DNA from: a virus | DNA: 64,000 nucleotides | IMG/VR virus record: IMGVR_UViG_3300010278_000003 | Strand: one strand, 5' to 3' | Part shown: positions 2,320 to 49,670 of the stretch, in pieces | Layout: each line of letters begins with the position of its first letter | Position numbering within the stretch: the first letter of the stretch is position 1 | Program-made: the position numbers and the translations under genes | The notes under the pieces: model-generated | Database searches by the model: none | What the model saw: only the letters and a program-made list of their open reading frames with translations | What the model was told of the DNA's origin: nothing

Positions 2320-2347
2320 TTGACAAAATATGACTTTACTATATAAT
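2320..2347 (+). promoter_or_regulatory. sigma-A promoter of the putative type I toxin mRNA
   Basis: TTGACA (2320-2325), 16 nt, TATAAT (2342-2347). Confidence 0.7.
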
Positions 2348-2707: not shown

Positions 2708-2777
2708 TACCTTATACAAAAAAATATTGAAATATATTAAGTTATAATAGGATAGGGTGGTTAACCTATTCTAATTA

Positions 2778-5700
2778 TTATCTCCTATAAGTACGCTGTA
2801 AAGCGTCAGAACTAAGAGTTTTTAATTGACTAATAAGTTCTTCTCCATTTGAAACGTTAGGAAGTACTAATTTATCAAAGTTATATCTATATACAATATT
2901 GCTTGTTTGAGGTCTACTTACATTATCAAGACTCTTAACAAGAGTGTTAACACCAGTAAACATATCAGAATATACATTGGCAAAAACGTCACTTTGTACA
3001 GTACTGCTCTTAAATATATCAGGTATTTCGACAGGAATTAAATCATCAGGTATGTTAGAGCCATTTTTCATTTTATCATAAGTCTTTAAAATGGCTTGCG
3101 ATTCGTCATGAGGGAATACTTGATCTCCATACTCTAAGTATGTCTTTCGACCTTGTGTTGTATTACGTAAAATAAGCTCTTTGCCTGCATCATCTACTAT
3201 TGCATGATGGGGAATTTTAATTTTGTCCGTACCTTTTGCATGTCGTGTAACAGTTACACTTGTTGTACTACCCGAACTGCTCTTAGTTTCTGACTTTGTA
3301 TTACCTTTTGAGTCTGTTGTTACATTAACAGTTACATTGGTCGAACCACCAATTATACCTGAACTATTAGATGAATCACCATATTTATTTCTAATAGATT
3401 CTGCTTGTTGGTGGTATTGGTGCATTCCTTCTTTGTCGCCTCTTGCTTCAGCTTCTTTATAGGCATCCTGTGCTTTTTTAATGGCATCTTTATCAGATTG
3501 ACTATAACTATCTCTGTATGTTCCATCTGAAGAAAAGTCGCCCCTTTTGTTTCCACCACCATTAGAGCCGCCACCAGACGAGCCACCTCTATATATTTCT
3601 CCGTTTTTAGTATTGATTGTTCCTACTAGAGTGTTGGTTGCTTTATCTACAACTTCAACTACACCATTAAGTCCTTCTTTTAAATCGTAAGCTCCTTCGC
3701 CAAAAGTATCATTCAAAATACCCATAGCATCAGAGTTTTCTTTTAGTTTATCAGAATTGGATTTAATGTTTTTATCTTGTCTATCGGCAGAAATCTTAAG
3801 GTCATTATACTGTTTATTATAGTCAGATCTATAAGCTCGATTAGCATCTACATTACTACCAGGTTCGTAATTAGGGTCATTGACAATTTTATCATAAATT
3901 TTATTAAAGACATCGCTATTATAAATATCCTCAGCATTAGGAATTTCTGTGATATTATCTACTATATCCGAGAAATCAAGGGCAGTATCACTATATCCAG
4001 TTTTAACTAAATTATGATCCCTATCATAGCTAAGACTTGTTACTTTTTTTCCAGAAGCATCATAAGAACCAACAGATGATTCGCTATTTCCATTTTTGGC
4101 ATTCAGTATCTCTCTATAAACTCTCTCAGCATCTTCACGAGCTTTAATAGTTGCTTTTTTATCGCCATTGCTTCCAGTGTTGACCAAATCTAATAGGTGT
4201 TTAGTATATTCTCTACTATTAGGGTCATTAAGCCATTCATCAAGAACTCCCAATTCAATCATTTTATTAAGAGTGCTTTGAGCGTGTTGTCTGTCAGTAT
4301 AACCAGAAGGACTACCTGTAATATAGCTATTCTTAAACCAATCTTTATTTGCAGCAGTAGTGTGTCCATGTATATCGTTAAATTGATAAAAACCATTACC
4401 AATATAAGAAGTATTGTAAGATTTAAAGAAATCTTCAAAATTATCATACTTCTTGCCACTATTATAGCCAGCGTTTTTATTAGCATTTACACCAGAAACT
4501 TTTTCACCTTTTTCACCAAAAAAGCTAAGATAATAATCTCTTGCAGACTTGTAAGCATCGCTATCTTCACCAACAGTTTCCTTAAGCTGTTCAAGACCTT
4601 TTTTGAACGTGTCTTCGTCTATAAGGATTGGATTATCATTGCCATCATAGGATACTCCCGGAAGACGAGTACCATCAGCATTAATGTTACCACCATTTTG
4701 TGTTCCTTTTGCAATACTTTCTGCAACACCGCTTGATACAGCATCTTTGATATCATCAGGTAAACCTTGCATTGTTATATTGAGATTATCAACCGAGTCG
4801 GTTGCATCATCAACATACGAAGAATTGGTAGATACTGCGGAAGTATTAGTATTTAAGCCAGTGGTATTTTTTGAAGTATTAGTGTTTGATTGATCAATGC
4901 TTTTCTTCGTAACTAAAACATTGTCATTTAATACCTCAATAGTACCAGTATAAGCATATTGTCCAGCATTATTATCATCAATTTTAGTTATTAAATCTTC
5001 AACTTTTTTCGAATAAAGACCAGTGATTGTACTTTGATATACACCAGCTTCGTCTTTACGAGAAGGGTCTACTATCTCATAAACACCACCACCTGTTAAT
5101 ATTCTATCACCAACTTTTGCACCAGCAGGAGCTGTGCCGTCTTTATTGGCATAATAATATGTAACATCTTTAGTTGTAGTTTCAGGATGATTTACTCTTA
5201 TAAGATTAGCTATTCTGCCAAATAAATCTTCATATTCATTAAGAATATCCTGTGCTGTCTGCTTTGTTATTTTTTCAATATCTTCACAAACATTGTAATA
5301 TTTATCACCGAAATCTTCGACATCAAGAGTACAATCGTTTACACGTTCTTCCCAATCACTACCAAAAATATTAGAAGCTTTTAACTTATCAGCAGCCTCC
5401 TGCCATTTGTCAGTGATTTTATCCCACATATCTTTGTAATCGTTAAGGGCATCAATTTGTTTTTCAATGTCATTGATACGCTGTTCATTTTCAAAGTCTG
5501 CGAGGTCTTGTTCTTTTTGCTTAATATCATCTTCATCGGCTTCGTAAGTCCAACCAATTCCTTTACGGTAAATATGTACAACTTTATTTTGTTTGGCTTT
5601 TGATAAAGCTTCTTTTAACTGTGCTAATTTTAAGGCACGGTCTTGCTCATCATTAATTGCCTGAAGTTCTTCTTTTTGTTTCTCAAGAGCTTCTATATTA

Positions 5701-8700
5701 TTCTCTATAACTTTAATTACAGCATTTTTAGCAGAATCGTATTTATCTCTTTTATCCTCAAGTAGTTGTTTACGAGCTTCCTTTATACCATTAGATGCAT
5801 CCATTAATTGCTTAATAAGCTTTTGAACTTTCTCAGATGTATTATCAAGTCCTTGTGCGTAAGCATCATTAAGCTCTTTTAATGTTGTAGTAATTTCCTC
5901 ACCAAAAAGCTTAATCTGATCTTCGGTATTATTTAATTCTTTAGCAACACTTATCTTAAACTCAATATCAGTGATTTTATCATCATATATCTGTTCTTTT
6001 AATGACTGTAAATCATCATTATATTGTTCAAGGGTATAATTATTATCTTGCCAAGTAACAGCCAAATCTTTATTGGCATCAGCCATTTCCTCAGTCTTGT
6101 TGATTAAATCTTCATAATAATGAATAAGCTCATTAGTATCTTCTTGGTCTTTACCTTTAAGTTCATTAAGATGTTCTAAATTACTAATATGAAGCTTGTC
6201 CGTATAAGGGTCATAACTAACATCAAAATTCTTTGCTTTTAACTCTGCAACATTTTTCTGAATTTCCTTATCTCTTGCTTCGTTTAATGCTTCGATTGCC
6301 TTTTGCTCTTCTTCCATTGCCGTAATGCGGTCTTTCATAAGAGCAATTTTTTCTTCATTTGTCTTAGCATTATCATATTTTTTGTCTATAGCTTCACGTT
6401 TAGCTTTCGCATCTTCATAGGCTTCGGTAAAGTTACGAAGTGCATCTATTTCTGCTTGATAAGCTTCGGTTTCAGAGCCGCCACCGCCGCCTCCGCCGCC
6501 AGAACCGGAAGAATTTCCAGAATCTTTTGAAGTATTAGATATAAGATTACCATTAATATTTCCAACACCCGTGGTAGCCGTTGTAGAACCAGAGGTTTTC
6601 TTAGTTGTTTTATTTGAGGTTGAAATATTAACCTTGCTTTTTAAACTTGATCCCATACTTCTAGCTATTTCAGAACTTGACATCCCCTCGTATTTAGTTC
6701 CCGCATATCTAACCTTGCTATTACCACCTAAAGAAAATAAAGGTAGATGACCGCCAGTAGCATTTATTTTTGAAGCAATATTATTCCATGTACTTTTTAA
6801 CGAATCAAAATTTCCACCTACACTAATAACAGCACTCGAATTGGAAATACTATCTATGGTATTGTTTGTTGCAGTTACAGCGCTTGATGTGTTAGCACCA
6901 ACTTTAACAGTAGGATTTGAATTATTAACTTTTGATTCGAACTTGGTTAATATATTTTCAGCTTGTTTTGGATCAGCCGTAAATGTTATTACACCATTTT
7001 GATCTGTTTTAACATAATCAAGTTGAGTTTCTACACCGTCAACATTTGCTGTAAAAACAACACTTCCATCTTGTTGCTTTACTGCTTCTATAGTTTGTTC
7101 AACACCGTCAACATTTGCTGTAAAAGTAATAACAGTTCCAGCAGCCATAATACTAATTTTGTTCATAAGAGACTGAAGACTGTCAGCATTATTAATTTTA
7201 GTATCTATAGTTAAAGTGTGAGGAGTTGAGAAAAACTCATTCCAATATTCTACAAAATCATCATCAGAAGCACTTGATATATCAATATTCTTTCCGTCAA
7301 GCCAATTATTAAACTCATCTAAAAGTTCAAGATACTCAGTTTGTTTTGCTTCAATCTTCTTCTGCATCTGCATTATTTCATCGTCACTTGCAGTTCCAGA
7401 AGTAACTCTTGATTGCATTTCGTCCGTTGCTTCGTCTATACCAGATTGAAGAGCAGAGACATAATCATTTGCTATTGTATCTATATTAGTTTGGTCTTCA
7501 AGCATTTTAATGGCTTGATCATTGTACGAGAGCAAAGAAGAATAATCCTCTTTATTTTCGTTACCAAACTTCATTTTTGTTTTTATTTTATCAATTTGAT
7601 CATATAACTGCTGTAAGTTATATTCAAATTTAATTGGAATGTCAAATCCTTCAGTTAAGGCTGACATGTCATCATTAAATCCTGCAACCTGCTTATCCCA
7701 ATTTTCAATTAATTTTCCGAGTTTTTCTTTTCTTGTGCCATCCTGAAGGTCATCATAAACATCTCTTAAAGAAGATATTTCATCTTTAATTTTCTCTATT
7801 GTTTGATATGTATCCTCTACATCATCAAACACAAAGCCATAATCCGACATTGACTTTAAAACCGCACTGACAACCTCAACACTTGTACCTAACTTGTCAG
7901 CTACTTCCTGAGTACTTTTAAAATGTGTTTTAATATTTCCAGTACTTTTGTCGATGTCCACAAGAGTAGGATCTACTTTTTTCAAATCATTCCAGAAGTT
8001 CCACATAGAAGCAGTTTGATCTTCTGAATTAAACCATCTTGATACTTTCTCGTAATTTTTCTTCCAAGCATCAGCATATGCATTTGCAGGAATGGTATAG
8101 GCAGAAGTATCTATTTTTTGAGGATTCATCCATTGTGCAACCGATTGAAAGTCATCAGTACCAATAAAACCACCATCAAATAATTTTTTTGCCTTTTCTA
8201 AATAATCAGATAAAGATGTCCAATCAACACTTGAATTTGCCGATTCAAAGGCGGTTTTTACCGATTCTAAAGTACCGCCTAACACGTTTGCTACATCTTC
8301 TCCAGCTTCTTTGGCTTTTTCAAGAGATTTACGGTACTCGTCAACTGCGTTCTTTGCGTCTTGATAGCTTTTTATTGTATCGTTATCAATGCCCATACTA
8401 ACAGTACGTAATTCATCTTCTGAAAGACTGTTAAAATATGCTTCATATTGAGATGTGTAAGTAACAGAACCTTTTTTGTCTGAAAAGAATTGTTTAATTC
8501 GATTCTTATAATCGTTAGTATCTATCTCACCAATTTTTATATTTACAGTTACAACATCGTTCTCAATTTTATTAGCCATATCAAGATAATCTTGATATAA
8601 TTGTTCCATCTTAGTCTTTTCTTCTTGATCATCGTCATAGACACCAGCATCAAGATACTTTTTAATCGTATCTGCATATTCAAGATATTCTTTCTCAGTT

Positions 8701-9517
8701 TCAAGAAGGGTAGAATTATAATCTTGAAGTTTTTGTTTGGACTTATCTATGTCGTTTTTATAAAGATTAGCAGCAAACGTATTACCTGCATCTGCCATTT
8801 CTTGGGCAGCTTTGGTATAAGTATCTAACTGTTTTTCTACTCTTTCGATATGAAACATAGTATTTCCATATTTTTGAGCACTTTTACCGACCTTGCTACT
8901 TCCAGATTTACTACTAATTACACCTTCGTTTAAAAGACCGCCTCTACCATACAGTTCGTTCTCGGCTAATTTCTTTTGTTCCTGCTCATAAATCTTTTGA
9001 TCAAGTTCAAGTCTTTGTTGTAAATAATCTAAACGAGATTGTTCCGCTTCAGTTAATCCACCTTCATCACGAAGAGCAAGAAGCTTTTTCTCTTCTTCTT
9101 CAAGAGATGATATTTCGGATGAAAGATTGTCAACTATCTCTTGCTGTTCTTCAAGAGTAACATTCAGTTTATCCCAAACCCACATACCTGCTTTAATAGC
9201 TAAATTAACTGCAAGCATAATACCTATGTTTTTAGCTGCATCTAATGCTGCTTTGCCAAATTTAGCGAATTTGTCGGATGAAGCACCAATAAATGAAGCA
9301 TATTGTTCTGCTACATCCTTAGAATAATCACAAGTATTAGTAAACTTTGTTAATTCACCATCTGCGAGTTCAAAATCTTTTGCAAATTCTAATATTTCAC
9401 CTTCATTATTAAAAATTTTTCCTTGTAAGGCTTCAAGAAAATTACTTTGATTTTCTGTCAGTTTTTTAAAGAATGAGCTAAATATTGTACTCCAACCATT
9501 TTCGCCATGATTGACAA
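2778..9517 (-). CDS. Tape measure protein, exon 2 (C-terminal ~2246 codons)
   Basis: The 2146-aa ORF frame is open 107 codons upstream of the called ATG (to 9539) and that ATG lacks an SD. Long coiled-coil protein. Joins exon 1 in frame at 9517. Confidence 0.85.
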
Positions 9518-9539
9518 CGTTGTTATAAAATGGTATATT
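9511..9539 (+). promoter_or_regulatory. sigma-A promoter (extended -10) for the antisense cargo genes, straddling the 3' splice site
   Basis: TTGACA 9511-9516, 17-nt spacer, TG at 9531-9532, TATATT 9534-9539; SD AGGAGG 9573-9578 before ATG 9586. Confidence 0.75.
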
Positions 9540-9585
9540 TTAGTTAATCACTTGAGTTAAATAACCTAAATTAGGAGGGAATATT

Positions 9586-10125
9586 ATGGATGATATCACA
9601 TACAAATTTGCACGTCATGGAAAAATATTTAAATGTCCACACTGCTACGAAACAGGTGGCAATTTAGAGGAATTTAGTAAAACTGCCTCTAAGTTAAATC
9701 CGAATCATAGTGAAAAATTAAAAGAATTCGCAAAAGGTTATTTAGGATTAAGTTTAGATCCACCATTTACAGATACCTGTCCGTATTGTGGAACTAAATT
9801 AATTGACACAGGAATCTCTTTTGATGATGCTATTACAATAAGAGATTTTAGCGATTTCAACAAAGACATATTTAATATGATGATTGATTTACATCAAAAA
9901 GATTTAATAGAATATACAGCTAAAATCAATATGATGAAAGCAAACATAGAAAAAACAAAGATGATTAAAAAAGAAATTGACACAACTCCCAAATGCCCCA
10001 AATGCGGTTCTACAGCTATCACTACAGGAGCGAGAGGTGCAAACTGGGCATGGGGATTTATAGGAGCAAGTCAAACGGTTAACAGATGTGGTAACTGTGG
10101 TTATACTTGGAAACCAAAGAAGTGA
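9586..10125 (+). CDS. Intron cargo: double zinc-ribbon protein
   Basis: Four CxxC pairs (CPHC, CPYC, CPKC, CGNC), a short hydrophobic GANWAWGFIG segment and a strong SD. Confidence 0.75.
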   Translation: MDDITYKFARHGKIFKCPHCYETGGNLEEFSKTASKLNPNHSEKLKEFAKGYLGLSLDPPFTDTCPYCGTKLIDTGISFDDAITIRDFSDFNKDIFNMMIDLHQKDLIEYTAKINMMKANIEKTKMIKKEIDTTPKCPKCGSTAITTGARGANWAWGFIGASQTVNRCGNCGYTWKPKK

Positions 10126-10166
10126 GAAGGGTGTAATACAAAACACATTAATCTATAAAAGGAGAT

Positions 10167-10535
10167 TTGGTTATGAAAAACACACAAAATATTGCATCTC
10201 TCATAGCTCGGCTTGAGTACGAGATTGGAAGAGAATGCTATAATCCAAATTCATATGATGGATATACGGGAGTAGAAGGTCGTGGATATAGATATCCAGT
10301 AAAAGTTTATCAAAACGAAAATATGAGAACATATCGTTATATGATATCAGAAATTTCTCCATCAGAAATTCATACAATGAAGTATGTGTTCGGATCTAAT
10401 CATTTATTTATTGGCAAGGGAATATATAATATTCTCAACACACTTGAAAGAAGATATGGTTTAGATTTTAACGAAATGGAAGAAAACTTAAGCAATAAAC
10501 CAAAAGATGATATTCCGACTACTCGTTTCATTTAA
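10167..10535 (+). CDS. Intron cargo: hypothetical protein
   Basis: 122 aa, SD AAGGAG. Confidence 0.7.
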   Translation: MVMKNTQNIASLIARLEYEIGRECYNPNSYDGYTGVEGRGYRYPVKVYQNENMRTYRYMISEISPSEIHTMKYVFGSNHLFIGKGIYNILNTLERRYGLDFNEMEENLSNKPKDDIPTTRFI

Positions 10536-10578
10536 ATAATGATAAAATATTCCTAACAAATATAAAGGAGAGACTATA

Positions 10579-10857
10579 ATGTATACAACAGATTTCAGCA
10601 TATTCACTCAAATGGTAAATATGGCGAAGCAGAAGAATTTAGATTATATTATTATGTATTCATATCACTCAATTAGTGGTGGCAAATATTCACATTCATA
10701 TTCTTTTGTATTATCAACAAATCTATTTACTGTTACCTTTAAAAAGAAATTTGAAGAAGGGAATGATAATGCTGTACGAGGATTTATTCAACATAATGAT
10801 TGTGTCAAACTTAATTGTGATATGATAATTGAAAAAGATTGTGTTGAATTACATTAA
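10579..10857 (+). CDS. Intron cargo: hypothetical protein
   Basis: 92 aa, SD AAGGAG; stop overlaps the stop of the convergent gene. Confidence 0.6.
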   Translation: MYTTDFSIFTQMVNMAKQKNLDYIIMYSYHSISGGKYSHSYSFVLSTNLFTVTFKKKFEEGNDNAVRGFIQHNDCVKLNCDMIIEKDCVELH

Positions 10858-11087
10858 AAATGTCTATCTTTTAATAATTCCAAAAGACGAATTTTTAAAT
10901 CGTATTCATCCCACTCAAGTTCAGAATACATCTTTAAGGCTTCACTAATTATGAATTCGTCAGATTCAGTTTCTTCCGAATGATTGAATCTGGCGAGTAG
11001 TTTCTGATATTCTACAATTTTATCTATATCAGGAAAAATTTCATTATGTGTTAATTTTTTTGATTGTGAATTTATTTTATCTATCAA
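10854..11087 (-). CDS. Intron cargo: hypothetical protein
   Basis: 77 aa, SD GAGGTG, TTG start. Confidence 0.55.
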   Translation of the reverse strand: MIDKINSQSKKLTHNEIFPDIDKIVEYQKLLARFNHSEETESDEFIISEALKMYSELEWDEYDLKIRLLELLKDRHF

Positions 11088-11141
11088 ATGATTTTCACCT
11101 CGATTTTATTATTATAAGTATTCATACAGGGAGGAATACAT

Positions 11142-11429
11142 ATGAAAAAATTATATTGTCCATTTACTAATGGTAGCTGTAATAACGATTGTATTATGAA
11201 TAATAATTGTTTTGAAGAAAATAATTCTCAAAATTGTATGTTACTTAAATCTGTCGAGTCAATTATATCTTTTGTTAACGGACTTTCGGTTGTAAATAAA
11301 GACACTGAAAAATACTTAAAAAGTATAAGTGACAATACCGGGGACGATCACTCATACTCCTTTGAAATTAACAACAAACTTGATTCGATTAAGAATCTTT
11401 TAGAGGAGATTATTCAGAACGAACAATAA
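11142..11429 (+). CDS. Intron cargo: Cys-rich N-terminus, coiled-coil hypothetical protein
   Basis: 95 aa, CPF...C...C...C...C pattern, SD GGAGG. Confidence 0.65.
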   Translation: MKKLYCPFTNGSCNNDCIMNNNCFEENNSQNCMLLKSVESIISFVNGLSVVNKDTEKYLKSISDNTGDDHSYSFEINNKLDSIKNLLEEIIQNEQ

Positions 11430-11622
11430 GATTCTTAATCTTATTTTCAACAATTCTAAGTAAACCAAAAGCCTGATTGTATGTTAAATTATTTGAGGTT
11501 ATTTCTGAAATTATTTTATCTGACAATGGGGAAATAACCTCTTTTTCAAAATTTTCGTTTTCAGTTTGTTTTTTAATTATTTCTTTAATACTTTCATTCA
11601 TTTCTTTAATATTTTCGTACAT
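11410..11622 (-). CDS. Intron cargo: hypothetical protein
   Basis: 70 aa, SD AAAGGA. Confidence 0.55.
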   Translation of the reverse strand: MYENIKEMNESIKEIIKKQTENENFEKEVISPLSDKIISEITSNNLTYNQAFGLLRIVENKIKNLIVRSE

Positions 11623-11736
11623 TTTATTTTTCCTTTCAATCCGTAGTTAAATATTTTTACTTAAAAATAACTCATACATAGTATTGCAGTACGTACCAAA
11701 GTGTGAGCCTAATATTTTAGAAAGAGTGATAAAATA

Positions 11737-12363: not shown

Positions 12364-12951
12364 TAATATGATGTGTTACATCTAAAAGAATTATTTATAC
12401 ATATATTACTACATACAATGGGTTATGTATTAGCCATATGGAAAAATTTTTAATTAATTTAACTTTCGACAAAATCATATTTTATTTTATAACCTTTTAT
12501 AACCTATAACATTCCCAAGTTATTATAGGCTTGTGTGATATGTACTAAGCAGGGCAGTAGAGTAATACTCTAAGTTCGTTTCCCTGTTCGCTTCTTGCAG
12601 CCTTTCGCCACAGTAACGGACTGTATGTTGCAATCTATAAAAATAGACCGTATCTTGTCAGCCTCTCGCACGATATAACATCTTGAAATCACACTTTCAA
12701 TTAACATTTATACCGTGTCGGAACTACCATTTTCGTATCAATAATCTATGATACTTAGTTGTGACACACCCACATGGAGCTTTTATTGCAGTGTCATCAA
12801 TACCTATAAATAGGCTTACGGCTTCCTCCGATATTCGACATATTTAGGATTTCTCCAAGGATTATGTCTACTTGATGAACGACCATCTTGTAGAACACCC
12901 ACTATTATGCATAGTAGGGGGTTTGTAACCATGACTTGTAACTATACGTTA

Positions 12952-15900
12952 GCCCATAACCTTTAGCACCAGCAACACCAGAAATAATTGTTCCTATACT
13001 GCCAAGTGTTCCAACTTTTTCTACAAGAAAATCTAAAGCTTCAATCAGCTTTGTCAGACCTTCTAATACAACCTTTATTGCATCACTATCAAGAAGTGAA
13101 TTTGACAAACCTTCAAAAGCAGCTTTTACTTCTTTTGTTTTTGCTTCAACGCCTTCTTCATATGCGCCAAATTTTTCCATTGCTGTACCAGAAGCATTAG
13201 CAGCAGTTTCAGCATATTTTAAAGCATTAGGATAGTTTTCGAAAAGAACGAGTAATTTTTCAGACTGAGCTGCACCTGCCATTGCAGTCACAATAGCTCT
13301 CTGTTCTACTGAAGTAAATGTATTCCATCTACTTGCAACTTCGTCAATTACATCACCAAAGTTTCTAAATTCATCCTTACTATCACGCAGTTTAATATTA
13401 AATTTCTTAAGAACTTTTTCTACATCTGATAAATCTTCACCGTCATCAGAAATGAATTTGCCAGCCTTAACATTACCCATACGTGAGAATATACGTTTAA
13501 AGGCATTACCGACAGAACTCATGCTATCCTGTGTTGTTTCACCTACAACAGCAGCATATCCCAATAACTGATCCATTGAAATACCCATTGTTCGTGCAGA
13601 GTTTGCAGTTTCTGCCATAGCTTCAGCAAGACCACCAAGAGATACAGCAACCTGAAGGTCAACCGCAGACATTTTATCTACAACATTCATGGCATCAGAA
13701 GCTTCAAGCTTATAACCTTTTAAGGCACTTGTAAGATACTGAGTTGATTCGGCAGAATCAAGTTGACCAACTTTAGACTGTACCATACTGGCTGTTATAA
13801 GATTATTAGTGTCTTCAAGCGAGTAACCCTGTCTTAACCAGCTATCGGCACTTTCCGCAACTTCTTTTGTAGTAGCACCTAAAGTTTTTGCCATACCATT
13901 ATAGGTTTTCATTAGCGAGTTAACATAATCTTCATTCTCACCAGAAGCTATCTGTAAGTTTACAACAGACTCGTTATATTCTTTCGCCGCATTATAAACC
14001 TCAGTAAATCCACGCTGAATATTTTGTAATGCGTTTGCACCAACAAAATATTGAGCTAAGTTTTTAAATGTGGTTTTTAACGTATCACCTAATGTTTTAG
14101 AATTATATCCTGCTGTTTTAACATCATTTGAGAAATTTCTAAATTCACCAGAAAGATCTTGAATATCCTTTCTTGCTTCTCTGATGGATTTTCCATCAAA
14201 ACTATCAGCAAAACCATTTTTAACCCGATCAGCCTGTTCTTTAATCATAATCAGTCTGTTATACATCTCATCAAACTGAGTTACTAATTTTTGAGCTTCG
14301 GGTTTACTTGATGCAAACAATTTTGTATTTGTAGCTTTATAAGCATTAAATTTGGACATTAAAGACTCTGTTTGTTTTATAATAAAATCAGTGTCAGTAA
14401 CATCTTTTTGGTCAGCTTTTGCTTGAGTTTGGGCTTGAGCAACTTGTCTACGTGCTGCTGCATTTTTTAAAACAGCTTCAGTATTACTATCAATTTCAGC
14501 CTTTTCTCTTGCAAAAGCCTCTGTATCAAAATTACCACTTGCTTTTGCATTAGCTAAAGTAGAAGCATATTGTTTTCTTAAAGCCTCAATATTTTCATTG
14601 TTAGCTTTTATTACAGGGGCGTTTTTGACAGGATCTTTTTGGAGAACTTCATTATCTTTTCTTAATTTTTTTATATTATTTAATAACTTTGTAAGCTTGG
14701 TTAGATAGTTTATATCATCTGATTTGTCACTATCTGTTGCGACAGTATCAGTTTCAACAACTTCTTTTTTTTGCTTTTCTACTTTTTTTAAAGCAACTTT
14801 AGTTTTTTCTGCAGAATTAGATGTAGCTTTACCGAAATTGTCTATGGCGTCCTGTGCTGATTTAAATGTTTGTGTTAAAGTTTTTGTTTCACCATTAATA
14901 TCAGATATCTTTTTATTAATTGTAACAAATTCATTGCTGTCAACACTAATAGTATATTCATCACCAAGATTTAAACTATTTTTAATTCGTTGAGCTGCAT
15001 CTAAAGTTTGTTGATATGTAAGAGCAGGGGAAGTTTCATGATCAAAATTAGCCAATTTTTCTTCCAATAGATTGATGTTTTCAATTATAGGTTTTAAAAT
15101 TTCATCAAAAATATTTCCATCTGCATCTATTTTTGCCGAAAAAGTTTTCCAAGCCCCATTAGCATCTTTTATTTTGGCTGTGACCTGCACAAGACCTTCT
15201 GCTAATCCATCAGTTATAAGTTTAGCATCAACAGAGTTACCTAAAATTATATTATCATTTTCAGTTAATTTCTTATTTGCCGCAGTTATATAATCATTAG
15301 AATTGGTGAAAAATTCATCTTCAGAAATTTTTTTATATTTAGAATATTTATTTTTTTTTGCCTTTTTGGGGTTTTTAAAATCTTCTGAAGATCCACCTAA
15401 ATTAGAATTACTATCATTAGATGACTCTTTAACTTGCTTATTTGCCTCGACAAATTCTTTCTTTGCATCGGCAGCTTCACGAGCAGACTTGGCAATCTGA
15501 TTCATTAACTCAGCTTCAAGTTTCAAAGGGTTTTCCGAACTATCAATAGAAGATTGTACTCCTTTATTGGCTGTTGCAAAATCTTTCTTTGCTTGAGCAG
15601 CATCATTAGTTGCTTTCTCCACATTCTCAATACCGTTTGTTTCAGATTTAATGTCAGTAGAAGAATCAGGAAATGCGTCTTTCTTTTGATTAGAAGCCGA
15701 TGAAATATTCGTTTTCTGAGGAGAAGTAAGATCGTTATTTCTAACATTCGCTAATTCAGTTTCAAGCTCTTTAACTTTGTTTGTAAGATTAATTATTTCT
15801 TCAACTGAAGTATTTACATTTAAACCATTCTTGAAAATATCCGGTAATGTACTTACTGCTGTCGAAATTTCTCCAAGCTTACTTACAATAGTGGAAAGTT

Positions 15901-16813
15901 GACCAATAACTTCAGACAAATCAGTTTTGCCAAAAATGTCATTTACAGCTTCAGTTCCGCCATTAGTACTTTTTTTTATTTCGTTTTGAACTTTCGTAAT
16001 TTGTGCTAATGCTGAAGAAGCTTGAGTCCAATAGCTTTTATCCGTACCTTCACGTATTATATCGTGTCCACCATACAATGATTTGGCTTCTTTTCTTGCG
16101 TTCTTGATAAAATCTATATAAGCTTGAAGTTTTTGCATAGAATTATCATACTGATTTATATCAAAATCAAAAAATTTATCAGTAAGTGATCCAGCCGCAC
16201 CTGACATTTTTATATGATTAAATAGATTCTGATAAGATTGCAAAGCACTTGCAATTTTTGCTTGTAATTTTCTATCTAAATCCCCATCTGTGCCAACATC
16301 TATATTCATATTAAATCCAAGATTTTGAGTTTTTGTACTTAATTGAGATATAGAATCACTAACTTGTTTAATTGTTGTAAGCAGGGGAGATAATTCGTTT
16401 CCATCTCCAACATCTGATATTACTTTTTTTATATCAGATAAATGTTTTTCAATGTTAGAAAAAAGCTCTATTGTTGATTTTAATTGCTTTTCATCAATTA
16501 AAGATTTTCCTATTCCCGTATTAATACCTTTACCCGATGCAAAATCTTTAATTATTTTCTGAAATTCTTTTAAATCTTTTGCAAACTGTTCTTTTCCGTC
16601 TGCTACAACTTTAATTTTATAATCAGTAGTAGAAAGTTTCTTTTGTACTTTGTTTAATTCTTTTGCAAGACTTGCATCCGATAAATCAAAGAAAATTTCT
16701 AATTTATTATTCTCCAAATCTCTTTGTGCAGAAGAAATTGCCTTAAGAGCTTGAACCGATACATCATTTTTATCTATAATAATACTCGCTACTAATGAAG
16801 CTACCTCAGCCAC
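12952..16813 (-). CDS. Tape measure protein, exon 1 (contains TP901-type TMP core)
   Basis: The segment AKTLGATTKEVAESADSWLRQG...VVDKMSAVD...GNAFKRIFSRM is typical of the TMP core. The unspliced frame stops at 12905, inside intron hairpin P2. Confidence 0.88.
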
Positions 16814-42346: not shown

Positions 42347-42985
42347 TTAAATTATTGTAGTAATATTAGTAACTACTTCATTTATGATTCCATATTTTAA
42401 AAGTTCATCACTTGATAAATACCAATCTTTATTCCTGTTCTTATTAAAAGTTTTTTCATCAATATTGGTATTAGCAAGAATATACGACTTCATTTGCTCA
42501 ATCTGTTTCTTATAATTCTTTTGAGCCTCTTCAATTTGTTCTGCTGTTCCCTGAAAAGCAGCAGATCCCGAATGTACCAACATAGAAGTATGTTCAAATG
42601 CAAAGCGTTTATGTCCAGATAAGAAGATTAAAAATCCTGCTGACATTGCTACTCCCATTCCAATGGTGATAATTGGTATTCTGCTCGCTTTTACAAGATC
42701 ACAAAAGAAAAGTGACTGTTCAATGTCTCCTCCGTAACTATGTATAAAAAGTCGAATAGGTAACGGATTAGGAATATCTTTTTCCTCAATATTTATTTGA
42801 ATAATAATTTTTGCAAGTTCTACAAGAGAATAATCTTCATCAATTTCATAATCAATATAAAAAGTTCTGTTTTTTCTATCTTTCCAATAAGTATATTCTT
42901 CTGGACTTGGTAAATCCTTATCTTTTAATTCACCAATCAAAGGTATTTCCATTAATTCCATAGGCATTTGTACCTGTTCTTTCAT
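42347..42985 (-). CDS. clpP: ClpP-like serine protease
   Basis: LFIHSYGG, GVAMSAG (catalytic S), MLVH, DWYLSSDELLKYGII. Confidence 0.88.
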   Translation of the reverse strand: MKEQVQMPMELMEIPLIGELKDKDLPSPEEYTYWKDRKNRTFYIDYEIDEDYSLVELAKIIIQINIEEKDIPNPLPIRLFIHSYGGDIEQSLFFCDLVKASRIPIITIGMGVAMSAGFLIFLSGHKRFAFEHTSMLVHSGSAAFQGTAEQIEEAQKNYKKQIEQMKSYILANTNIDEKTFNKNRNKDWYLSSDELLKYGIINEVVTNITTII

Positions 42986-43006
42986 AATATTTACTCACTT
43001 TGAGCA

Positions 43007-44446
43007 TTAGATTCTTGCAACAGTATCTTTATTTGTTGCTACAACTTTTGTTGTTTTAGAGATTTTTGAAATTCTATTTTCTAATTCTTCTTTAAACTTA
43101 ATTTTGTTTTTATCACCATGAACCAACCAAATTACATCACAACCATTGTTTGCTAAATTAGTGTAATAGTTTTGTAAATCTTCGAACTGCATATGTGAGC
43201 TAAACGAATCTAAGCATTTAATATCACAGCGATTGTAATATGGTTTTTGGTCTATGGTAATTGTTTTTTGAGATGGGTTATTTTTTATTTTCCAACCAAT
43301 ACCACCTTCAGCCATATAACCACAAGTTAAAATGGAACAATTACTTCTTGGTAATATCTTTTTTAAATATAAAATACTACGTCCCTGTGTTAACATGCCT
43401 GATGATGAGCATACTATTTTGGGACTGTCATCTGCTACACAAGCTATGCTTTCCTCAACTGTACGTATAACTTTTATATTTTTCCATGACATCATTCTAT
43501 TAAATTCTTCAAGCCAATAACCCTCCAAGTTGTTTCTAAAACAATCAAGTAATTTAACTGCAAGAGGGGAGTCAACAATTATTGGAATGTTAAATTCTTT
43601 ATCATCTTTAAATATATTCCAAAGTGTATACAGCATTGTTTCTGTTCGTTGTAGCGCAAAAGTGGGAATAAGAACTATTCCTTTATGATCAACACATGTT
43701 TGTGTAATGACATTCTTTATTGTTTCTATGTCTTTTTTTCGTTGATCCTTTTTTACGGATCTTCTTTTATCATTGTAAGTCGTTTCACCAATAAACATAG
43801 AACATTTTACAACAGGTGATAGTTCTTCAACAAAAGGTTGTTCGAATAAAATATTTCCTAAATCGCCTGAATAAGCAATTTTTTTAATAACCCCAGAGGG
43901 CAATTTGATGTATAGTTCTATTTGACAAGAGCCAAAAATATGACCTGCATTTATAAATTTAAACCATACATTTTCTGTGATATAATGTTCTTCGTTTTTT
44001 GAACATCCACGAAAATATTTAAGTGAGTTTTCAACATCATCAAAGTTGTAAACTGGGATATGTTCACGCTTAAATTTTCTGTTAAATGCTTGTACATCTC
44101 TTTCAAATATTTTTGCAGAGTCTTCTAACATAGGTCTAACAAAGTCAATAGTTTCTGCTGAAATATAAAAGTTGCAATGTGCTCCGTCATGAACTAATTT
44201 TGGAAGTAGAGCATAATGATCTGCGTTAATGTGAGATATTATAACTGCTGTAAGTTCTGAAGGCTTAAAATCAAATTTTCGTCTATTAATTTTATAGTCT
44301 TCATAAGGTTTTGAAGTTTGATAAATACCACAATCCAAAAGAATTTTTTCTCCTGTTGGACATTCGATCAAATAACTACTTCCAGTTACATCACATGATG
44401 ACATTCCCACGCACTTAACAGTTACTTTATCTTTTTTCTTTCCAAT
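43007..44446 (-). CDS. MBL-fold beta-CASP nuclease (extended to a probable ATT start)
   Basis: VTGS, LLDCG, SHINADH, AGHIFGS, YSGDLG, ETTY, IPTFALQR, FSSH, LVHG. Confidence 0.88.
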   Translation of the reverse strand: MGKKKDKVTVKCVGMSSCDVTGSSYLIECPTGEKILLDCGIYQTSKPYEDYKINRRKFDFKPSELTAVIISHINADHYALLPKLVHDGAHCNFYISAETIDFVRPMLEDSAKIFERDVQAFNRKFKREHIPVYNFDDVENSLKYFRGCSKNEEHYITENVWFKFINAGHIFGSCQIELYIKLPSGVIKKIAYSGDLGNILFEQPFVEELSPVVKCSMFIGETTYNDKRRSVKKDQRKKDIETIKNVITQTCVDHKGIVLIPTFALQRTETMLYTLWNIFKDDKEFNIPIIVDSPLAVKLLDCFRNNLEGYWLEEFNRMMSWKNIKVIRTVEESIACVADDSPKIVCSSSGMLTQGRSILYLKKILPRSNCSILTCGYMAEGGIGWKIKNNPSQKTITIDQKPYYNRCDIKCLDSFSSHMQFEDLQNYYTNLANNGCDVIWLVHGDKNKIKFKEELENRISKISKTTKVVATNKDTVARI

Positions 44447-44476
44447 AAGGCATTCAACCTTTCAATATGTATTTTT

Positions 44477-44674
44477 TTACTTTTTCTTTTTCTTGTTACT
44501 ATCAGAAAAATATCTTTCTGTCACTAAATTTTCTTTATACTGTTTCAGCACATCAAGATTTTCTTTAGTCGAAACCATATAATGTTTGTGATAATGACAG
44601 TGCATACCAGCAAATTCAGTTACCGGTAAAACCTTTCTTAAAGCTTTATATTCTGTTTCTGTAATCGGAATTAT
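44477..44674 (-). CDS. Small basic hypothetical protein, ATA start (not in ORF track)
   Basis: 65 codons open after SD AAAGGTGG; IIPITETEYKALRK...KKKKK. Confidence 0.5.
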   Translation of the reverse strand: MIPITETEYKALRKVLPVTEFAGMHCHYHKHYMVSTKENLDVLKQYKENLVTERYFSDSNKKKKK

Positions 44675-44717
44675 AGTAATTCCACCTTTCGTTTAAAATT
44701 TCCCAAATGGGATTGAA

Positions 44718-44789
44718 CAGGGTGTACAGGATTCGAACCTGTGCATATAGGAGTCAAATTCCTAGGTCTTTCCGCTTGACGAACACCCT
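44718..44789 (-). tRNA. tRNA-Gln(UUG)
   Basis: Acceptor AGGGTGT/ACACCCT, anticodon arm TAGGA-ATTTGAC-TCCTA, T loop TTCGAAT. Confidence 0.9.
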
Positions 44790-45020
44790 ATAATAAGAAA
44801 CGCTCCGAGTGTTAATAACTCGGAGGTTAAAAAAAAAGAGAGATTTACCCGTAAAAGGGTTTTGATTTGTATACTGCCCGTATAGGGCTTTGTAATAAAA
44901 GTTTATAAAGGAGGGTAATGCAAACAAAAATACATCACCAAGAGAAGCATATTTAGAATTGTGAATACTTATGTATATTTATAACGTTATTATTTTTGTA
45001 TGTCACAATATTTAATCTAT

Positions 45021-45455
45021 AATAAGAAAATTGAGATATCCTTTCATAATTTCAACCAATTTGACCAATATAATATGAAAGATATTTTATTTTTTTCTGT
45101 AATTAATTTGAAACCTTTTAAGAGAATAGAGGTGCTGTTTACACCAACATACATTAAAAGTGATTGACGAATTGAATATTGAATTACGAATTTTCAAATT
45201 GACGAATTAGCAAATTGTTGAAATTGTGAGAGAATGATTAACGTTTACGACTAACGTACTATTATTTGTTCTAAATTAAATTTTAAGTCTATTAGATTTA
45301 ATATTTTCCTCTTGAATAAATATAATATAAAAGTATGTAAACTTGCGTAAGCATTAATATTTTTTGATATTTCTGGCATATCTGCCTCGCAGCCTTATAG
45401 TTCATCTGCGACTGAACCGATTGACAATTAATCAGTCAATCTCAATTTTCCTATT
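45021..45455 (-). ncRNA. Candidate ~435-nt structured RNA of unknown class
   Basis: 17-bp terminal helix, H-type pseudoknot, internal AAUU-periodic repeats, no ORF of 60 aa or more. Confidence 0.6.
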
Positions 45456-45476
45456 GACAATTTTACAAAGTAGGGA

Positions 45477-46085
45477 TTAACCTACAATATCTTCTAAAGA
45501 ATCAGACAAATCCCAAATAGGTTCATAATCTACTTCAGTGGTTGCCTGAATAGCATCTATCTTTATAGATACGTCATCTGTTTCTTTTTGAAGCTTCTTT
45601 GAAATACCTCTAACATCATTTCTATCAAAATTGATAGTTGTGACATTATCTATATCATAGTAATAAGCTACCTGATTTCCGTCTGTATTAAATTTGTATC
45701 CAGAACCTCTGGAAACTGTTTCTGAAGGTTTAGTTTTAGTCATCGAGCTAAGAACGCCAATATATCCCTGTTTAATTCTGTTCATTTCAATTGAAGAATC
45801 TATATTAATTTCAGCATTCTTTTTAGCAGTATCAATAGCATTTGTAAGTTTCTGTTTTTCTACTAATGCTTTGTTGATAAATTCTATAAGCTGCATAGGC
45901 GTAAAATCAACATTATAAGATGTTTTAACAACCATAACTTCATCTTCTGCTTCAGGATTTACTTTCTTACGATTATGTGTCTGTGTTGTCTCTGTGATAA
46001 AATCTTTTTTACAAAGATAACCTTCAGCAGATGAAATGAGATTGCTTAAATAATTCTGATAACGGTAAGCTTCTTTAAGTATCAT
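45477..46085 (-). CDS. Conserved-looking coiled-coil hypothetical protein (possibly DIP1984/septicolysin-like)
   Basis: 202 aa, MILKEAYRYQNYL start, long amphipathic helices; family assignment is tentative. Confidence 0.6.
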   Translation of the reverse strand: MILKEAYRYQNYLSNLISSAEGYLCKKDFITETTQTHNRKKVNPEAEDEVMVVKTSYNVDFTPMQLIEFINKALVEKQKLTNAIDTAKKNAEINIDSSIEMNRIKQGYIGVLSSMTKTKPSETVSRGSGYKFNTDGNQVAYYYDIDNVTTINFDRNDVRGISKKLQKETDDVSIKIDAIQATTEVDYEPIWDLSDSLEDIVG

Positions 46086-46401
46086 ATTTATTCTCCTTTT
46101 AATCCAATTAATAGTTTATTATTATATTTATATATTCGCTTTTCTTTTACAAAAATCAGCTCTTACAACAACCTGTTTATAAACGTTTTTATTTATTTTT
46201 TTAAAATATACTTGCAATGTCAAAATGACACTGCAAGCTACAAAGATTGTCGGTTTGTTTCTTCCAAGACAATCGTTTTTGTATCAAGTTTTTATTTATT
46301 TTCACTATACCTACATTTAAGAAAAAACAAATTTTTGTGAAAAAGTGCTGAAAAGCCAGTAAAATCAAGGGTTTGGGACAGATTCTATTTCGCTACAAAA
46401 A

Positions 46402-47160
46402 TCAGTTTCTTAGTAATTTTGCACAAATTCTTTTGCGATTTTTCTCGTTTTCTTCAGCACATTGTGTGCAATACATTTTTTTGTTACCAGTATCCTTTAT
46501 CTTTTTTCCACAACATTTGCACTGTTTATATCCTTTTTTAAAGTTTCCTATGTACTGATTGCCAATGTTTTCGAAAGAGGTGAGTTTATAGGCGATAGTG
46601 CCGGGAGAGGAAAGAGGAACACGGATATTGAGATTGTCAATTTTCTTACCAAAACTGATGTAACCATTAATATATAATTCGTGAAGTAACTCATTTTTCT
46701 TATCAGATGGAAGTGTTACATTAGCAAGTTTGAATACTTCGGACAAACCTTTTAAATTCTTCTTGTTTATCCATCCGTCACAATTCATATATCTTGCTAT
46801 AGCAAATAGGGTAAACATAAACTTTTTTTGACGGTCATTTGGAAGGGTTTCTATAAGGGACAATTCTTCTTCATAAATAGGAATATATTCGAGTTCTCTA
46901 AAAAGATTTTCTGTTTCTAACTCATATAAAGCTGTACATGATTTTTTAATTTTTTTATAATACTTATACTCTTGGTATCCATCCAAATTAAATTCAAGCA
47001 TTTTTTCTTTAACAGTATTAATAAGTTCATTTGCTTCTTTATTTTTATCAAAATAATATTTCGCAATTAAGGTTATCAAATATCCATTGGATAAATCATC
47101 AGGTTTGTTTTTAGAGGCAAGTATGTTTCTAATATAATCTCTTTCGTTTAATATATACAG
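46402..47160 (-). CDS. Hypothetical protein with C-terminal Zn finger, coupled to the RNAP gene (probable CTG start)
   Basis: CKCC...YCTQC; frame open to a CTG at 47160 overlapping the RNAP 3' end. Confidence 0.65.
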   Translation of the reverse strand: MYILNERDYIRNILASKNKPDDLSNGYLITLIAKYYFDKNKEANELINTVKEKMLEFNLDGYQEYKYYKKIKKSCTALYELETENLFRELEYIPIYEEELSLIETLPNDRQKKFMFTLFAIARYMNCDGWINKKNLKGLSEVFKLANVTLPSDKKNELLHELYINGYISFGKKIDNLNIRVPLSSPGTIAYKLTSFENIGNQYIGNFKKGYKQCKCCGKKIKDTGNKKMYCTQCAEENEKNRKRICAKLLRN

Positions 47161-49670
47161 TTTTCTTCACCATCCATTTCTTTCAATTCTTCTAAACGTT
47201 TAATTATCAATTTCCCAATACAATCCCAACAAAACTGTCTATTTCCCTTGTAGCCATAGGTCATATCAAGTATTATATTCATACGTTCATCATCATTAGG
47301 ACATATTTCTGCTGCTTCGTTTCTAAATTTTTTAATCATATTAACTCTTTGATAATACCTATCAAATTCATCCTGTTTGTCTTTTCTTGCCTTATATTGT
47401 TTTATACATTCACAATAATACTGCTCTAATTCCTTTAAAGCTTGTCTATGTTCTTCAGTACAGCGTCTTTTTACTTTTAATTTGTTATAATCAAACGTAG
47501 AATTTTTATGTAATTGTGATTTATAGCCATCCAATTGACTTTCAACATATCTACATATTTTATTCATAGAACAATTGCCTATACCAACGGGCATTTTTCG
47601 TTCATACCAAAATAAAAATTCTTTTTGTTCGTCTGTCAAATTTTCTTTTTCACTTAATTCTTGAATAGAACATTTATAAATTGCATAACACTTTGCGTTA
47701 CTTTCTTTTACATACTGTTTATATTGTTTTTTTGTTTCATCATAAACATAAATCATAAAATATGGCTTTCTATAAGCGCATAAAGACTGTAGACGTTTAT
47801 CATCACCACAAGCACCGAGATTATACCAATATGCTGGCATAGGAGTTGCAACAATCCCTTTTATACGATCCAGCTCATTCTGCTGAAACAACTGTCCACA
47901 TTCAATTCTATACTCCAACTCTTTGTATTCTTCAGAATTTTTTTCAAAATGTGATTGAACTTCCATCATAGAAGTAACATAGTTTGTAATAGTACCAACT
48001 TGATTACCCATACCATCCTTGTTTGTTTTCTTTACAGCACTTTCAGTTACTACAATTTTTTCTGTATTACGCTGTATACATTCAATAGCAGGTAAATATC
48101 TATAACGTCTTTTAAGCACAGGATTGTTAGTGGAAAAATTAAGATCTGAATCGTAATCTTCACCATTCTCAGCCATACAGAATGAATCCCAACCATTAAT
48201 AATTATTATAGTGTCCATGTATTGATACCAATATTTACACTCGTCCGAAGAGTTTATCTTACACATTCTTATATTATTATGACTTGTCATTGGGCTTCTA
48301 AACACAACTACTTCGTCTTCATTTTTATTAATCCAGAATTTTGAATATATCTCATCAGATTTTAACAATCCAGTAACCTTTAAACCACAAATTGATTGCA
48401 TAAGAGCAAATGGATCTCCACTTGCGATTTGGTAATTACCTTTTACAAACAATTTTCCAATCTTGGCATCATTCATTTTTTTCTTAATATATCTATGTGT
48501 GGAGTCTATTATATATGGATCGCCAAGCATATATTCACTTGTATACAAGGCTCTTTGCCATGAGTTAACATCAGTATTTTCATTAATTCCAAGAAATTTG
48601 ATAGTTGAGTTATAATCTCCACACATAGCATCTTTTAGATAATTAATAGTTGGAGCACATAGTTCTTCTATATCTTCTTGCGTAAAATCATAAGACTGTA
48701 AATATTGATAGTTTAACTCTCTTTCCTCTTCAAGAACATGAGATGAAATTTTAGTAACTGAAAAGCCATAACCACACTCTCTATAAGCTGTAACATAATC
48801 TTCTATACAATCATACGCACTCCATAATTTAAGAGAAGATTCCGTTAATATCATTTCACATTTACGTAAGTCCTGTGTATTGCCCCAAATATCTTCAATC
48901 ATATAATTTCCATTATTATATTTTTCAATAAATTCATAAATTGGAAAAGGGTAAAGCATTCCTTTTAACCATGCATTTCTTAAGCATACACCACTTGGAG
49001 TATATGTAAGATTTAATGACCTTCCGACTCTTTCCATATATTGAATTGTACAAAGATTAAAACCATCAGATATATTATTTTCAAGCGTTTTATCATGAAT
49101 AATTTCACGTTTTGGTTCTTCGCCACTACTGTCATCAAGTGAAATAACATCAGCTATATATTCTGCTATACAATCTTTAACAACCAAAATACCATTTGGT
49201 TCACAGATAGGCTGTGAAGCAGAGCAGGTTAGAGCTTTATATGCTTCATATTTTGCAGGTACTAATTTTATTTCAGGGTTTCTTTTGCATTCGCATAATT
49301 CGTTTAATTTATCAATATATTCAGAATTGCAAAAGAGTAGGGTATTATTTTTTAAACCACCTGTAGTCCCAACAAAACGTCTATAATTAATACCATTTAC
49401 TATTACTTCTTTTTTACCAGTAGCCCTTGTAAAATCTGTTTTTGTATCTATTACAACTTGAAGAAAAATTTTAGAAAAGTCTATATCTTGAATGTTTTTA
49501 TGTAGTATTTTATTTGCCATTATTAAAAAATGTCTTCCTTCAAACAGCGAAATAAGTTCCTGATACTTAAAAGCTTCTTTTGCAGAAATTGTTAAATTCC
49601 AATTAGAATATTTTAATTTGTTTGTTCCAATTTTGAAAATTTCATATTGAGGTACGCTAATTCCAGCCAT
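47148..49670 (-). CDS. YonO-like single-subunit (double-psi beta-barrel) RNA polymerase
   Basis: 840 aa; DGFNL, R..W.KGML, FRSP, NGEDYDSD (DxDxD), ELDRIKG; heads the late arm as yonO does in SPbeta. Confidence 0.85.
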   Translation of the reverse strand: MAGISVPQYEIFKIGTNKLKYSNWNLTISAKEAFKYQELISLFEGRHFLIMANKILHKNIQDIDFSKIFLQVVIDTKTDFTRATGKKEVIVNGINYRRFVGTTGGLKNNTLLFCNSEYIDKLNELCECKRNPEIKLVPAKYEAYKALTCSASQPICEPNGILVVKDCIAEYIADVISLDDSSGEEPKREIIHDKTLENNISDGFNLCTIQYMERVGRSLNLTYTPSGVCLRNAWLKGMLYPFPIYEFIEKYNNGNYMIEDIWGNTQDLRKCEMILTESSLKLWSAYDCIEDYVTAYRECGYGFSVTKISSHVLEEERELNYQYLQSYDFTQEDIEELCAPTINYLKDAMCGDYNSTIKFLGINENTDVNSWQRALYTSEYMLGDPYIIDSTHRYIKKKMNDAKIGKLFVKGNYQIASGDPFALMQSICGLKVTGLLKSDEIYSKFWINKNEDEVVVFRSPMTSHNNIRMCKINSSDECKYWYQYMDTIIIINGWDSFCMAENGEDYDSDLNFSTNNPVLKRRYRYLPAIECIQRNTEKIVVTESAVKKTNKDGMGNQVGTITNYVTSMMEVQSHFEKNSEEYKELEYRIECGQLFQQNELDRIKGIVATPMPAYWYNLGACGDDKRLQSLCAYRKPYFMIYVYDETKKQYKQYVKESNAKCYAIYKCSIQELSEKENLTDEQKEFLFWYERKMPVGIGNCSMNKICRYVESQLDGYKSQLHKNSTFDYNKLKVKRRCTEEHRQALKELEQYYCECIKQYKARKDKQDEFDRYYQRVNMIKKFRNEAAEICPNDDERMNIILDMTYGYKGNRQFCWDCIGKLIIKRLEELKEMDGEENCIY

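Follow-up and report, generated by a model that had tools for sequence, protein, structure and literature searches.

A gene for a protein of 202 amino acids, located on the minus strand of a viral DNA stretch of 64,000 nt (further called the window), is followed by about 1.07 kb of non-coding DNA that ends at the next long gene (44410) and holds a tRNA-Gln gene (44790-44717). For the part of this non-coding stretch closest to the gene, the earlier note had proposed a closed RNA of about 435 nt, which raises the question whether this region indeed encodes a structured RNA and, if so, whether this RNA belongs with the protein encoded directly upstream.

With about 30% GC the window is AT-rich, and it looks like a large phage, with long runs of same-strand genes, four scattered tRNA genes and genes encoding a ClpP-type protease, a beta-CASP/RNase J-like nuclease and a metallophosphoesterase. 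The identical 202-aa protein occurs on 2 contigs, the longest of 224 kb, and a contig of 257 kb encodes a relative with 95% identity; searches of GenBank phages gave no relative of gene or RNA, either as DNA or as protein. An 840-aa protein (47148-49670, minus strand) is homologous to YonO, the single-subunit RNA polymerase of SPbeta. Its gene lies two genes upstream of the 202-aa gene, and its matches include Enterocloster phage proteins, at 48% identity, and yonO of SPbeta-like phages. Directly 3' of the RNA and tRNA-Gln, genes for a beta-CASP/RNase J-like metallo-hydrolase (467 aa) and then a ClpP-type protease (212 aa) occupy 42347-44410 on the minus strand, and this pair is also found after the cassette in several relatives (L001, L003 and L010). 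Elsewhere in the window, two very long ORFs (2778-9218, 2146 aa, and 12905-16813, 1302 aa, both on the minus strand) are part of a same-strand run, and at about 52000-56000 gene orientation flips from minus to plus and the GC skew changes sign, a switch which may be a module boundary or a phage replication landmark.

The RNA begins 21 nt past the stop codon of the 202-aa gene and its parts are listed in Table 1. Folding of 45455..45021 gave an MFE of -88 kcal/mol with z = -5.2 compared to 100 shuffles, and only short, non-conserved ORFs were called inside it. As such, it shows the general features by which a large structured non-coding RNA is recognised, being long and non-coding, having several covarying helices and lacking a conserved reading frame.

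Table 1. Features of the gene and RNA locus in the window (positions of the whole stretch)
Feature	Position	Strand	Basis
Terminator-like hairpin of the preceding gene; a promoter-like site 5' of the 202-aa gene overlaps it	46195..46238	-	consensus scan only
Gene of the 202-aa protein, putative RNA partner	45477..46085	-	ORF list
Whole closed RNA (435 nt), terminal-helix 5' strand to 3' strand	45021..45455	-	fold, conservation, structure counts
P1 terminal helix, 5' strand	45439..45455	-	inverted repeat of 17 nt, 94% complementary
P1b, 5' strand of the inner long-range helix, adjoining pseudoknot 1 on its 5' side	45419..45431	-	RNAalifold consensus
Pseudoknot 1 (H-type), most widely conserved core	45387..45418	-	covariation, model R1
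Pseudoknot 1 stem 1	45418-45414 / 45403-45399	-	alignment of 68 cores
Pseudoknot 1 stem 2 (loop pairing)	45411-45406 / 45392-45387	-	alignment of 68 cores
Pseudoknot 1 extra pair	45404 / 45395	-	covaries, U-A 60, C-G 8
Pseudoknot 2	45366..45386	-	stem 1 counted; stem 2 by inspection
Pseudoknot 2 stem 1 (GGCA/UGCC hairpin)	45386-45384 / 45377-45375	-	pair counts
Pseudoknot 2 stem 2 (loop pairing)	45382-45378 / 45370-45366	-	inspection across clades
A/U-rich tract, AAUU every 7-9 nt (once 12)	45161..45226	-	TRF, pattern count
P1b 3' strand, within near-invariant 3' block	45046..45057	-	RNAalifold consensus, pair counts
P1 terminal helix, 3' strand	45021..45037	-	inverted repeat; covariation in relatives
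First terminator-like hairpin past the RNA	44914..44939	-	consensus scan

In relatives whose proteins are only 50-60% identical, two nucleotide blocks past the stop codon are still 80-90% identical and the middle varies. These blocks map to window positions 45454-45360 and about 45064-45005. Such a two-block pattern, which is unusual for phage intergenic DNA, prompted a wider sampling. In all, about 250 related loci were gathered from viral contigs, metagenomes and genomes.

Comparison of these relatives shows an RNA fold under selection, with strong support for the terminal helix, the inner long-range helix and the H-type pseudoknot. The terminal helix, by which the earlier note had closed the RNA, is present and is the best-supported element: in relatives it counts 24 pairs, 19 of which show changes on both sides, with 96% of cells paired. 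P1b has 11 pairs, five with double changes, and 97% of cells paired; both counts come from the AT-rich clade, of which 20 full-length members (345-534 nt) were compared. The H-type pseudoknot was likewise confirmed, as 97.4% of cells pair in 68 distinct cores aligned without gaps, compared to 30-49% in slid controls, and six of its 12 pairs show double changes. Its covariation score amounts to 0.294 versus 0.108 in shuffles, none of 500 reaching the observed value, and model R1 scores 69.5 bits at this pseudoknot as its sole match in the window. A G-U wobble closes stem 1 in 62 of the 68 sequences, and in the extra pair the base preceding the 3' strand of stem 1 is matched with a linker A. The GGCA/UGCC hairpin (45386-45375) was confirmed too and constitutes stem 1 of a second pseudoknot, for which two of the three stem 1 pairs show double changes; that both stems change in step between clades, whose alignment registers differ, was seen by eye, so that the second pseudoknot rests on inspection. 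Over the whole model, 31 of 50 modelled pairs carry compensatory changes and 95.1% of 994 cells pair, against 35-46% when slid.

Not every helix read from the window itself recurs in relatives. A local hairpin (45441-45435 / 45425-45419) exists in the sequence and receives no support from the comparison, its 3' arm (45425-45419) pairing in the consensus with the near-invariant 3' block (45057-45046); a 3' helix (~45088-45077 / 45049-45037) can also be formed and is not conserved. The AAUU-periodic tract that had been described for the centre of the RNA is real at 45226-45161. TRF reports it as a period-16 array with 2.3 copies of a 16-nt unit, and AATT-N4-AATT-N4-AATT sites were found twice in the 64 kb (0.22 expected), both times in the tract. 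A period of ~8 nt is seen again in the RNAs of AT-rich relatives.

With 435 nt in the window and about 345-535 nt in relatives, the RNA keeps a similar size down to ~32% protein identity. In GC-rich prophages a helix of ~24 bp closes ~400 nt of different sequence with the same geometry, and loci missed by the first core model have a compact H-type pseudoknot at the same place together with a near-perfect terminal duplex of ~25 bp.

At the DNA level, the two inverted repeats, which lie 400 bp apart, and the periodic A/T-rich tract could also be explained as a small transposon with inverted repeats at its ends, as an attachment site or as an origin with iterons. Across the modelled pairs 110 G-U cells were counted versus nine A-C cells, a ratio not given by DNA repeats, and the same pairs are formed in 95.1% of cells on the gene strand compared to 84.9% on the opposite strand. 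The excess of G-U over A-C together with this drop indicates an RNA made from the strand of the gene rather than a DNA inverted repeat. Moreover, the pseudoknot covaries, a single copy is found per window and per genome, and its position and orientation towards one gene do not vary, so that an element acting at the DNA level is all but excluded; a MITE-like transposon was rejected on the same copy number and pair counts. A retron was likewise rejected: a closing helix is present, but no reverse-transcriptase domain was found among the neighbours in 10 loci with precomputed Pfam matches or in L133.

Whether this RNA is tied to the 202-aa gene was addressed from both sides. Ten contigs fetched by exact protein identity all have a gene-free gap of 640-1060 nt after the gene. 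In the wider sampling, loci were chosen by the protein alone (79 viral loci and 80 genome loci). On the protein side, the 5' block lies on the strand of the gene in 117 of 169 loci, all matches being on that same strand, and the canonical core is present in about 125 of the 169, typically 50-75 nt past the stop. Most remaining protein-selected loci carry variant pseudoknots and a terminal helix of ~25 bp, and in two or three (L057, L058, L088) another gene follows straight after the stop instead of the RNA. Conversely, a 17-base core pattern run over IMG/VR yielded 80 loci, 70 of which have the gene directly upstream on the same strand and two of which lie at contig ends; the other eight were discarded as chance matches inside coding sequence, without the rest of the motif. 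Genuine core matches with enough upstream sequence are therefore preceded by the gene on the same strand in 70 of 70 cases. Homologues without the element had been named as the refuting outcome, and the opposite was found, with linkage in both search directions.

The cassette is patchily distributed over a wide range of elements. Four genomes each contain exactly one core match, at the known place, and among 151 genomes of one family three have a core match, including a new one with the gene beside it and another, of 27 bits, without the gene. Among one-per-species prokaryote genomes, 277 places encode a relative of the 202-aa protein, and the sampled genome loci belong to prophages or integrated elements in Lachnospiraceae, Oscillospiraceae, other Clostridia and Selenomonas; cultured genera with the cassette comprise Blautia, Mediterraneibacter, Intestinibacter, Pseudoflavonifractor, Flavonifractor and Lawsonibacter, with strains such as Pseudoflavonifractor capillosus ATCC 29799, Blautia fusiformis CLA-AA-H217, Mediterraneibacter hominis NSJ-55 and Intestinibacter bartlettii N19 among the carriers. 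In large phages the cassette follows a YonO-like gene and lies near genes for HU, beta-CASP, ClpP and homing endonucleases. In ~40 small elements a terminator lies between the cassette and a repressor-like HTH gene that converges on it, and in the one annotated small element (L133) the cassette is preceded by an integrase and an excisionase-like gene. Relatives also have genes for HNH and GIY-YIG homing endonucleases scattered around the cassette (L007 5245-5733, L009 1657-2331, L010 1776-2615), insertions that fit a recombination-prone region.

Two-way linkage across the sampled loci thus shows gene and RNA to be inherited together as one unit in very different settings. Ahead of the gene, the terminator-like hairpin and promoter-like site of Table 1 are a possible start of an independent transcription unit, and the first terminator-like hairpin past the RNA is a possible end. 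In relatives a hairpin with a U-run lies ~45-70 nt past the terminal helix, and GC-rich prophages have a bidirectional terminator after the RNA. These sites before the gene and hairpins after the RNA point to gene plus RNA, ~1.1 kb in all, as the conserved unit, which, judged by where it is found, behaves as an autonomous cassette.

In a comparison with known RNA families, Rfam 15 at gathering score returned only the four tRNAs in the window; at E up to 10, nothing overlapped the RNA element within 44350-45550, and at E up to 1, eight diverse relatives gave no match on the element. The Rfam 15 models that were not matched include ROOL, GOLLD, OLE, HEARO, 6S, tmRNA, RNase P and the known ribozymes and riboswitches. 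The Rfam scan suggested in the earlier note hence confirms that the RNA matches no catalogued family, and together with the two-way linkage it strongly supports the proposal of a dedicated pair of protein and non-coding RNA outside the known families.

ROOL and GOLLD are large ornate RNAs of >350 nt with multiple pseudoknots, found in phages and prophages of Clostridia and Lactobacillales and often near tRNA genes. The RNA described here resembles them in size, multiple pseudoknots, carriage by phages and prophages and a nearby tRNA gene (44717-44790), but it strictly accompanies one protein gene and has a closing helix of ~25 bp. By analogy to ROOL and GOLLD, it might have a function of its own and merely share a transcription unit with the 202-aa gene, for instance as a self-assembling particle, a decoy of RNA polymerase or RNase, a ribozyme or a ligand sensor, and the palindromic AAUU repeats could mediate RNA-RNA contacts. 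[quoted passage not shown] Nevertheless, the core model found nothing in SPbeta, c-st or Enterocloster phage PMBT24, though all have YonO homologues, and a homologue of the 202-aa protein is absent from SPbeta. Moreover, many cassettes sit in elements without a YonO-type gene in the fetched flanks. The same-strand adjacency in 70 of 70 cases across unrelated contexts is hard to explain without functional dependence, and none of the ROOL, GOLLD, OLE, 6S, RNase P, ribozyme or riboswitch models applies, which makes an RNA acting independently of the protein very unlikely.

The protein itself belongs to no family, having no match in Pfam, PHROGs, PADLOC or NCBIfam, even though its relatives are numerous (127 in a 90%-identity collection and 1041 clusters at 50% identity). 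An AF2 model (pLDDT 92.7) shows an alpha/beta fold with long helices, so that the description of the gene as 'coiled-coil' is loose. The best, and only clear, solved structural match is 3kdq, an uncharacterised Corynebacterium protein (Z 10.4, 145 residues aligned, rmsd 3.4), and all structural neighbours are uncharacterised (3kdq, DUF6847 and DUF7873), those among predicted structures being hypothetical viral clusters. Fold and structure searches revealed no recognisable RNA-binding fold. Profile matches among PDB sequences to 'Tail Tube gp217' and 'PVC Protein gp192' were marginal (E 0.03-0.05) and not trusted. A symmetric homodimer is predicted, supported by an ipSAE of 0.71 versus 0.00 for the best control, on a benchmark in which the ipSAE mark was reached by 20 of 30 proteins solved as same-chain pairs and one of 23 solved as single chains; contacts agree for at least 97% between runs and the partner pLDDT is at least 91. 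With a pI of 4.9 the protein is acidic, like the whole family (pI 4.7-5.6). No fusion to an informative domain was found: two longer homologues (305 and 317 aa) show no C-terminal domain that could be recognised and look like read-through into the RNA rather than fusions.

Taken together, these data leave us evenly divided on whether the RNA acts in trans as the functional partner of the 202-aa protein, in a gene-plus-RNA cassette in which the RNA works with or controls the protein. The RNA would be co-transcribed with the 202-aa gene, given that only ~20 nt lie between stop codon and helix. The long, nearly perfect terminal duplex could then protect the ends of the RNA or, alternatively, serve as a substrate for RNase III or another RNase specific for double strands, so that a stable RNA is set free. 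The released RNA would act with the dimeric protein, either in a ribonucleoprotein or as its regulator or antagonist, with the pseudoknot domain and the near-invariant 3' block as a putative recognition surface, and the cassette might serve as an accessory module in phage-host or phage-phage conflict. The predicted homodimer fits the oligomeric RNA binder that the earlier note had in mind, whereas a role of the RNA as 'sponge' is pure conjecture. Against a functional partnership stand the acidity of the protein, the lack of a recognisable RNA-binding fold and of an informative fusion, and the two or three loci with another gene in the place of the RNA; tight linkage can, in addition, arise from promoter sharing or control in cis alone.

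A precedent for such a pair is OLE: this large structured RNA works as a ribonucleoprotein, and its gene neighbours that of a dedicated Oap partner protein. The likeness consists in a large structured RNA adjoining the gene of a partner protein; there is no similarity in sequence or to the model, and the partner here looks like a soluble acidic dimer, unlike the membrane protein of OLE. Furthermore, the element described here is mobile, whereas OLE is chromosomal.

An RNA that lies this close behind the stop codon has no room for a promoter of its own, and it could accordingly be a purely cis-acting 3' untranslated region that stabilises, destabilises or times the 202-aa mRNA and is without function once separated. 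One possible route would be a switch. In many clades a strong hairpin was observed past the stop, the 3' half of which is the 5' strand of the terminal helix (L133 3643-3690, L010 4619-4660), and such a hairpin occurs in L031 and L047 within the first 40 nt past the stop. Due to the common strand, this hairpin and the terminal helix are mutually exclusive, and their alternation could be a processing or expression switch. Within the GC-rich clades and part of the AT-rich ones, this 5' strand is able to form a strong hairpin with the sequence immediately upstream instead, an alternative pairing of the kind used by regulatory switches. Such a role in cis only seems unlikely to us, for known 3' stabilisers need far less than ~400 nt that include two pseudoknots, conserved unpaired bases and a near-invariant 3' block, and element size stays similar over protein divergence down to ~32% identity.

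Cis control by a related architecture is known from the T4 gene 32 operator, in which a pseudoknot followed by an A/U-rich tract of short repeats provides the nucleation site and cooperative lattice for the protein encoded by the same mRNA. A pseudoknot and then an A/U-rich tract with short repeated motifs are found here as well, but the operator is a 5' leader of <100 nt over the ribosome-binding site, whereas the present RNA lies past the stop codon and has long closing helices. Pairing of the RNA with the start of its own gene was also considered. Its centre (45327-45314) is complementary in 13 of 14 positions to the ribosome-binding and start region of the 202-aa gene (46093-46080); as a general mechanism such antisense pairing was rejected, since 134 loci performed no better than shuffled ones (mean z -0.28).

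A third way in which RNA and protein could depend on each other is a toxin-antitoxin-like or defence/counter-defence pair, in which the RNA neutralises or licenses the protein in a type III-like manner within another family. It would suit an autonomous two-part cassette with a patchy distribution, a pseudoknotted RNA paired with a protein of ~200 aa, and a location, in ~40 loci, beside the lysogeny switch and facing a convergent repressor-like gene, with an integrase near in L133. Type III systems (ToxIN, CptIN, TenpIN) likewise are cassettes of a protein of ~170-200 aa and a pseudoknotted RNA on phages and plasmids. In these systems, the gene of the toxin, a basic endoribonuclease, is preceded by a tandem array of ~36-nt repeats, with a terminator between array and gene, whereas here a single 435-nt RNA lies downstream of the gene of an acidic protein. 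Membership of type III, to which the earlier note had likened the pair as one example, therefore fails on the defining layout, the RNA being downstream, in single copy and not a repeat array, with the 2.3 copies of the 16-nt unit as its only tandem signal. No match of the protein to ToxN, AbiQ, CptN or TenpN was found with PADLOC, Pfam, PHROG, NCBIfam or fold searches, a remote relation being possible, and PADLOC and Pfam gave no match to any defence protein. Moreover, known RNase toxins are not acidic. We consider such a pair rather improbable, and within the partnership of RNA and protein the toxin-antitoxin-like or defence version is a minority.

A weak hint of expression comes from contigs. 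Pieces of 38-60 nt that match the pseudoknot core and nothing else reach depths of 1,850-11,650 in one wastewater library, which is labelled RNA-Seq and flagged as probably DNA; as these depths come from contigs, level, strand and ends cannot be read from them. In the same library, longer relatives running through the core have depths of 53-262 and all other pieces on the 2-kb stretch at most 26; of the core contigs over 45364-45430, one loose end enters the Nextera adapter after 9 nt. Two RNA-Seq-labelled libraries (probably DNA) contain exact-match contig pieces at 45100-45482. A literature search by sequence words returned unrelated papers only. A catalogue of about 10,000 phage candidate RNAs (PMC10690425), in which the T4 gene 32 translational operator is mentioned, contains unnamed, highly expressed candidates of 64-86 nt in Lachnospiraceae and Blautia phages, and these could be the 5' domain of the RNA described here.

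Gene and RNA together look like a new protein-plus-RNA module of phages and prophages of gut Clostridia. The RNA is new to Rfam 15, although fragments may already sit unnamed in the PMC10690425 catalogue. Its closest kinds are ROOL, GOLLD and OLE with its partners, from whose models it departs and from which it differs by one fixed partner gene. More specifically, it is conceivable, though we hold this only tentatively, that the module is a ribonucleoprotein system of these phages, consisting of a dimer of a new protein family and a dedicated ornate RNA of ~400 nt, which would act in lysogeny or in phage-host conflict, for example as an RNA-controlled toxin or defence module of a new class or as an RNA-scaffolded particle.

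Big, intricately folded RNAs of bacteria and phages are rare, and RNase P, OLE, ROOL and GOLLD each opened new biochemistry. For the RNA described here the comparative support is unusually clean, and the cassette is widespread, with 277 places in genomes and >1000 protein clusters at 50% identity. A single conserved partner gene that travels with the RNA provides an experimental handle that is absent for ROOL and GOLLD and, as the cassette occurs in cultured strains (Blautia and others), its function is directly testable.
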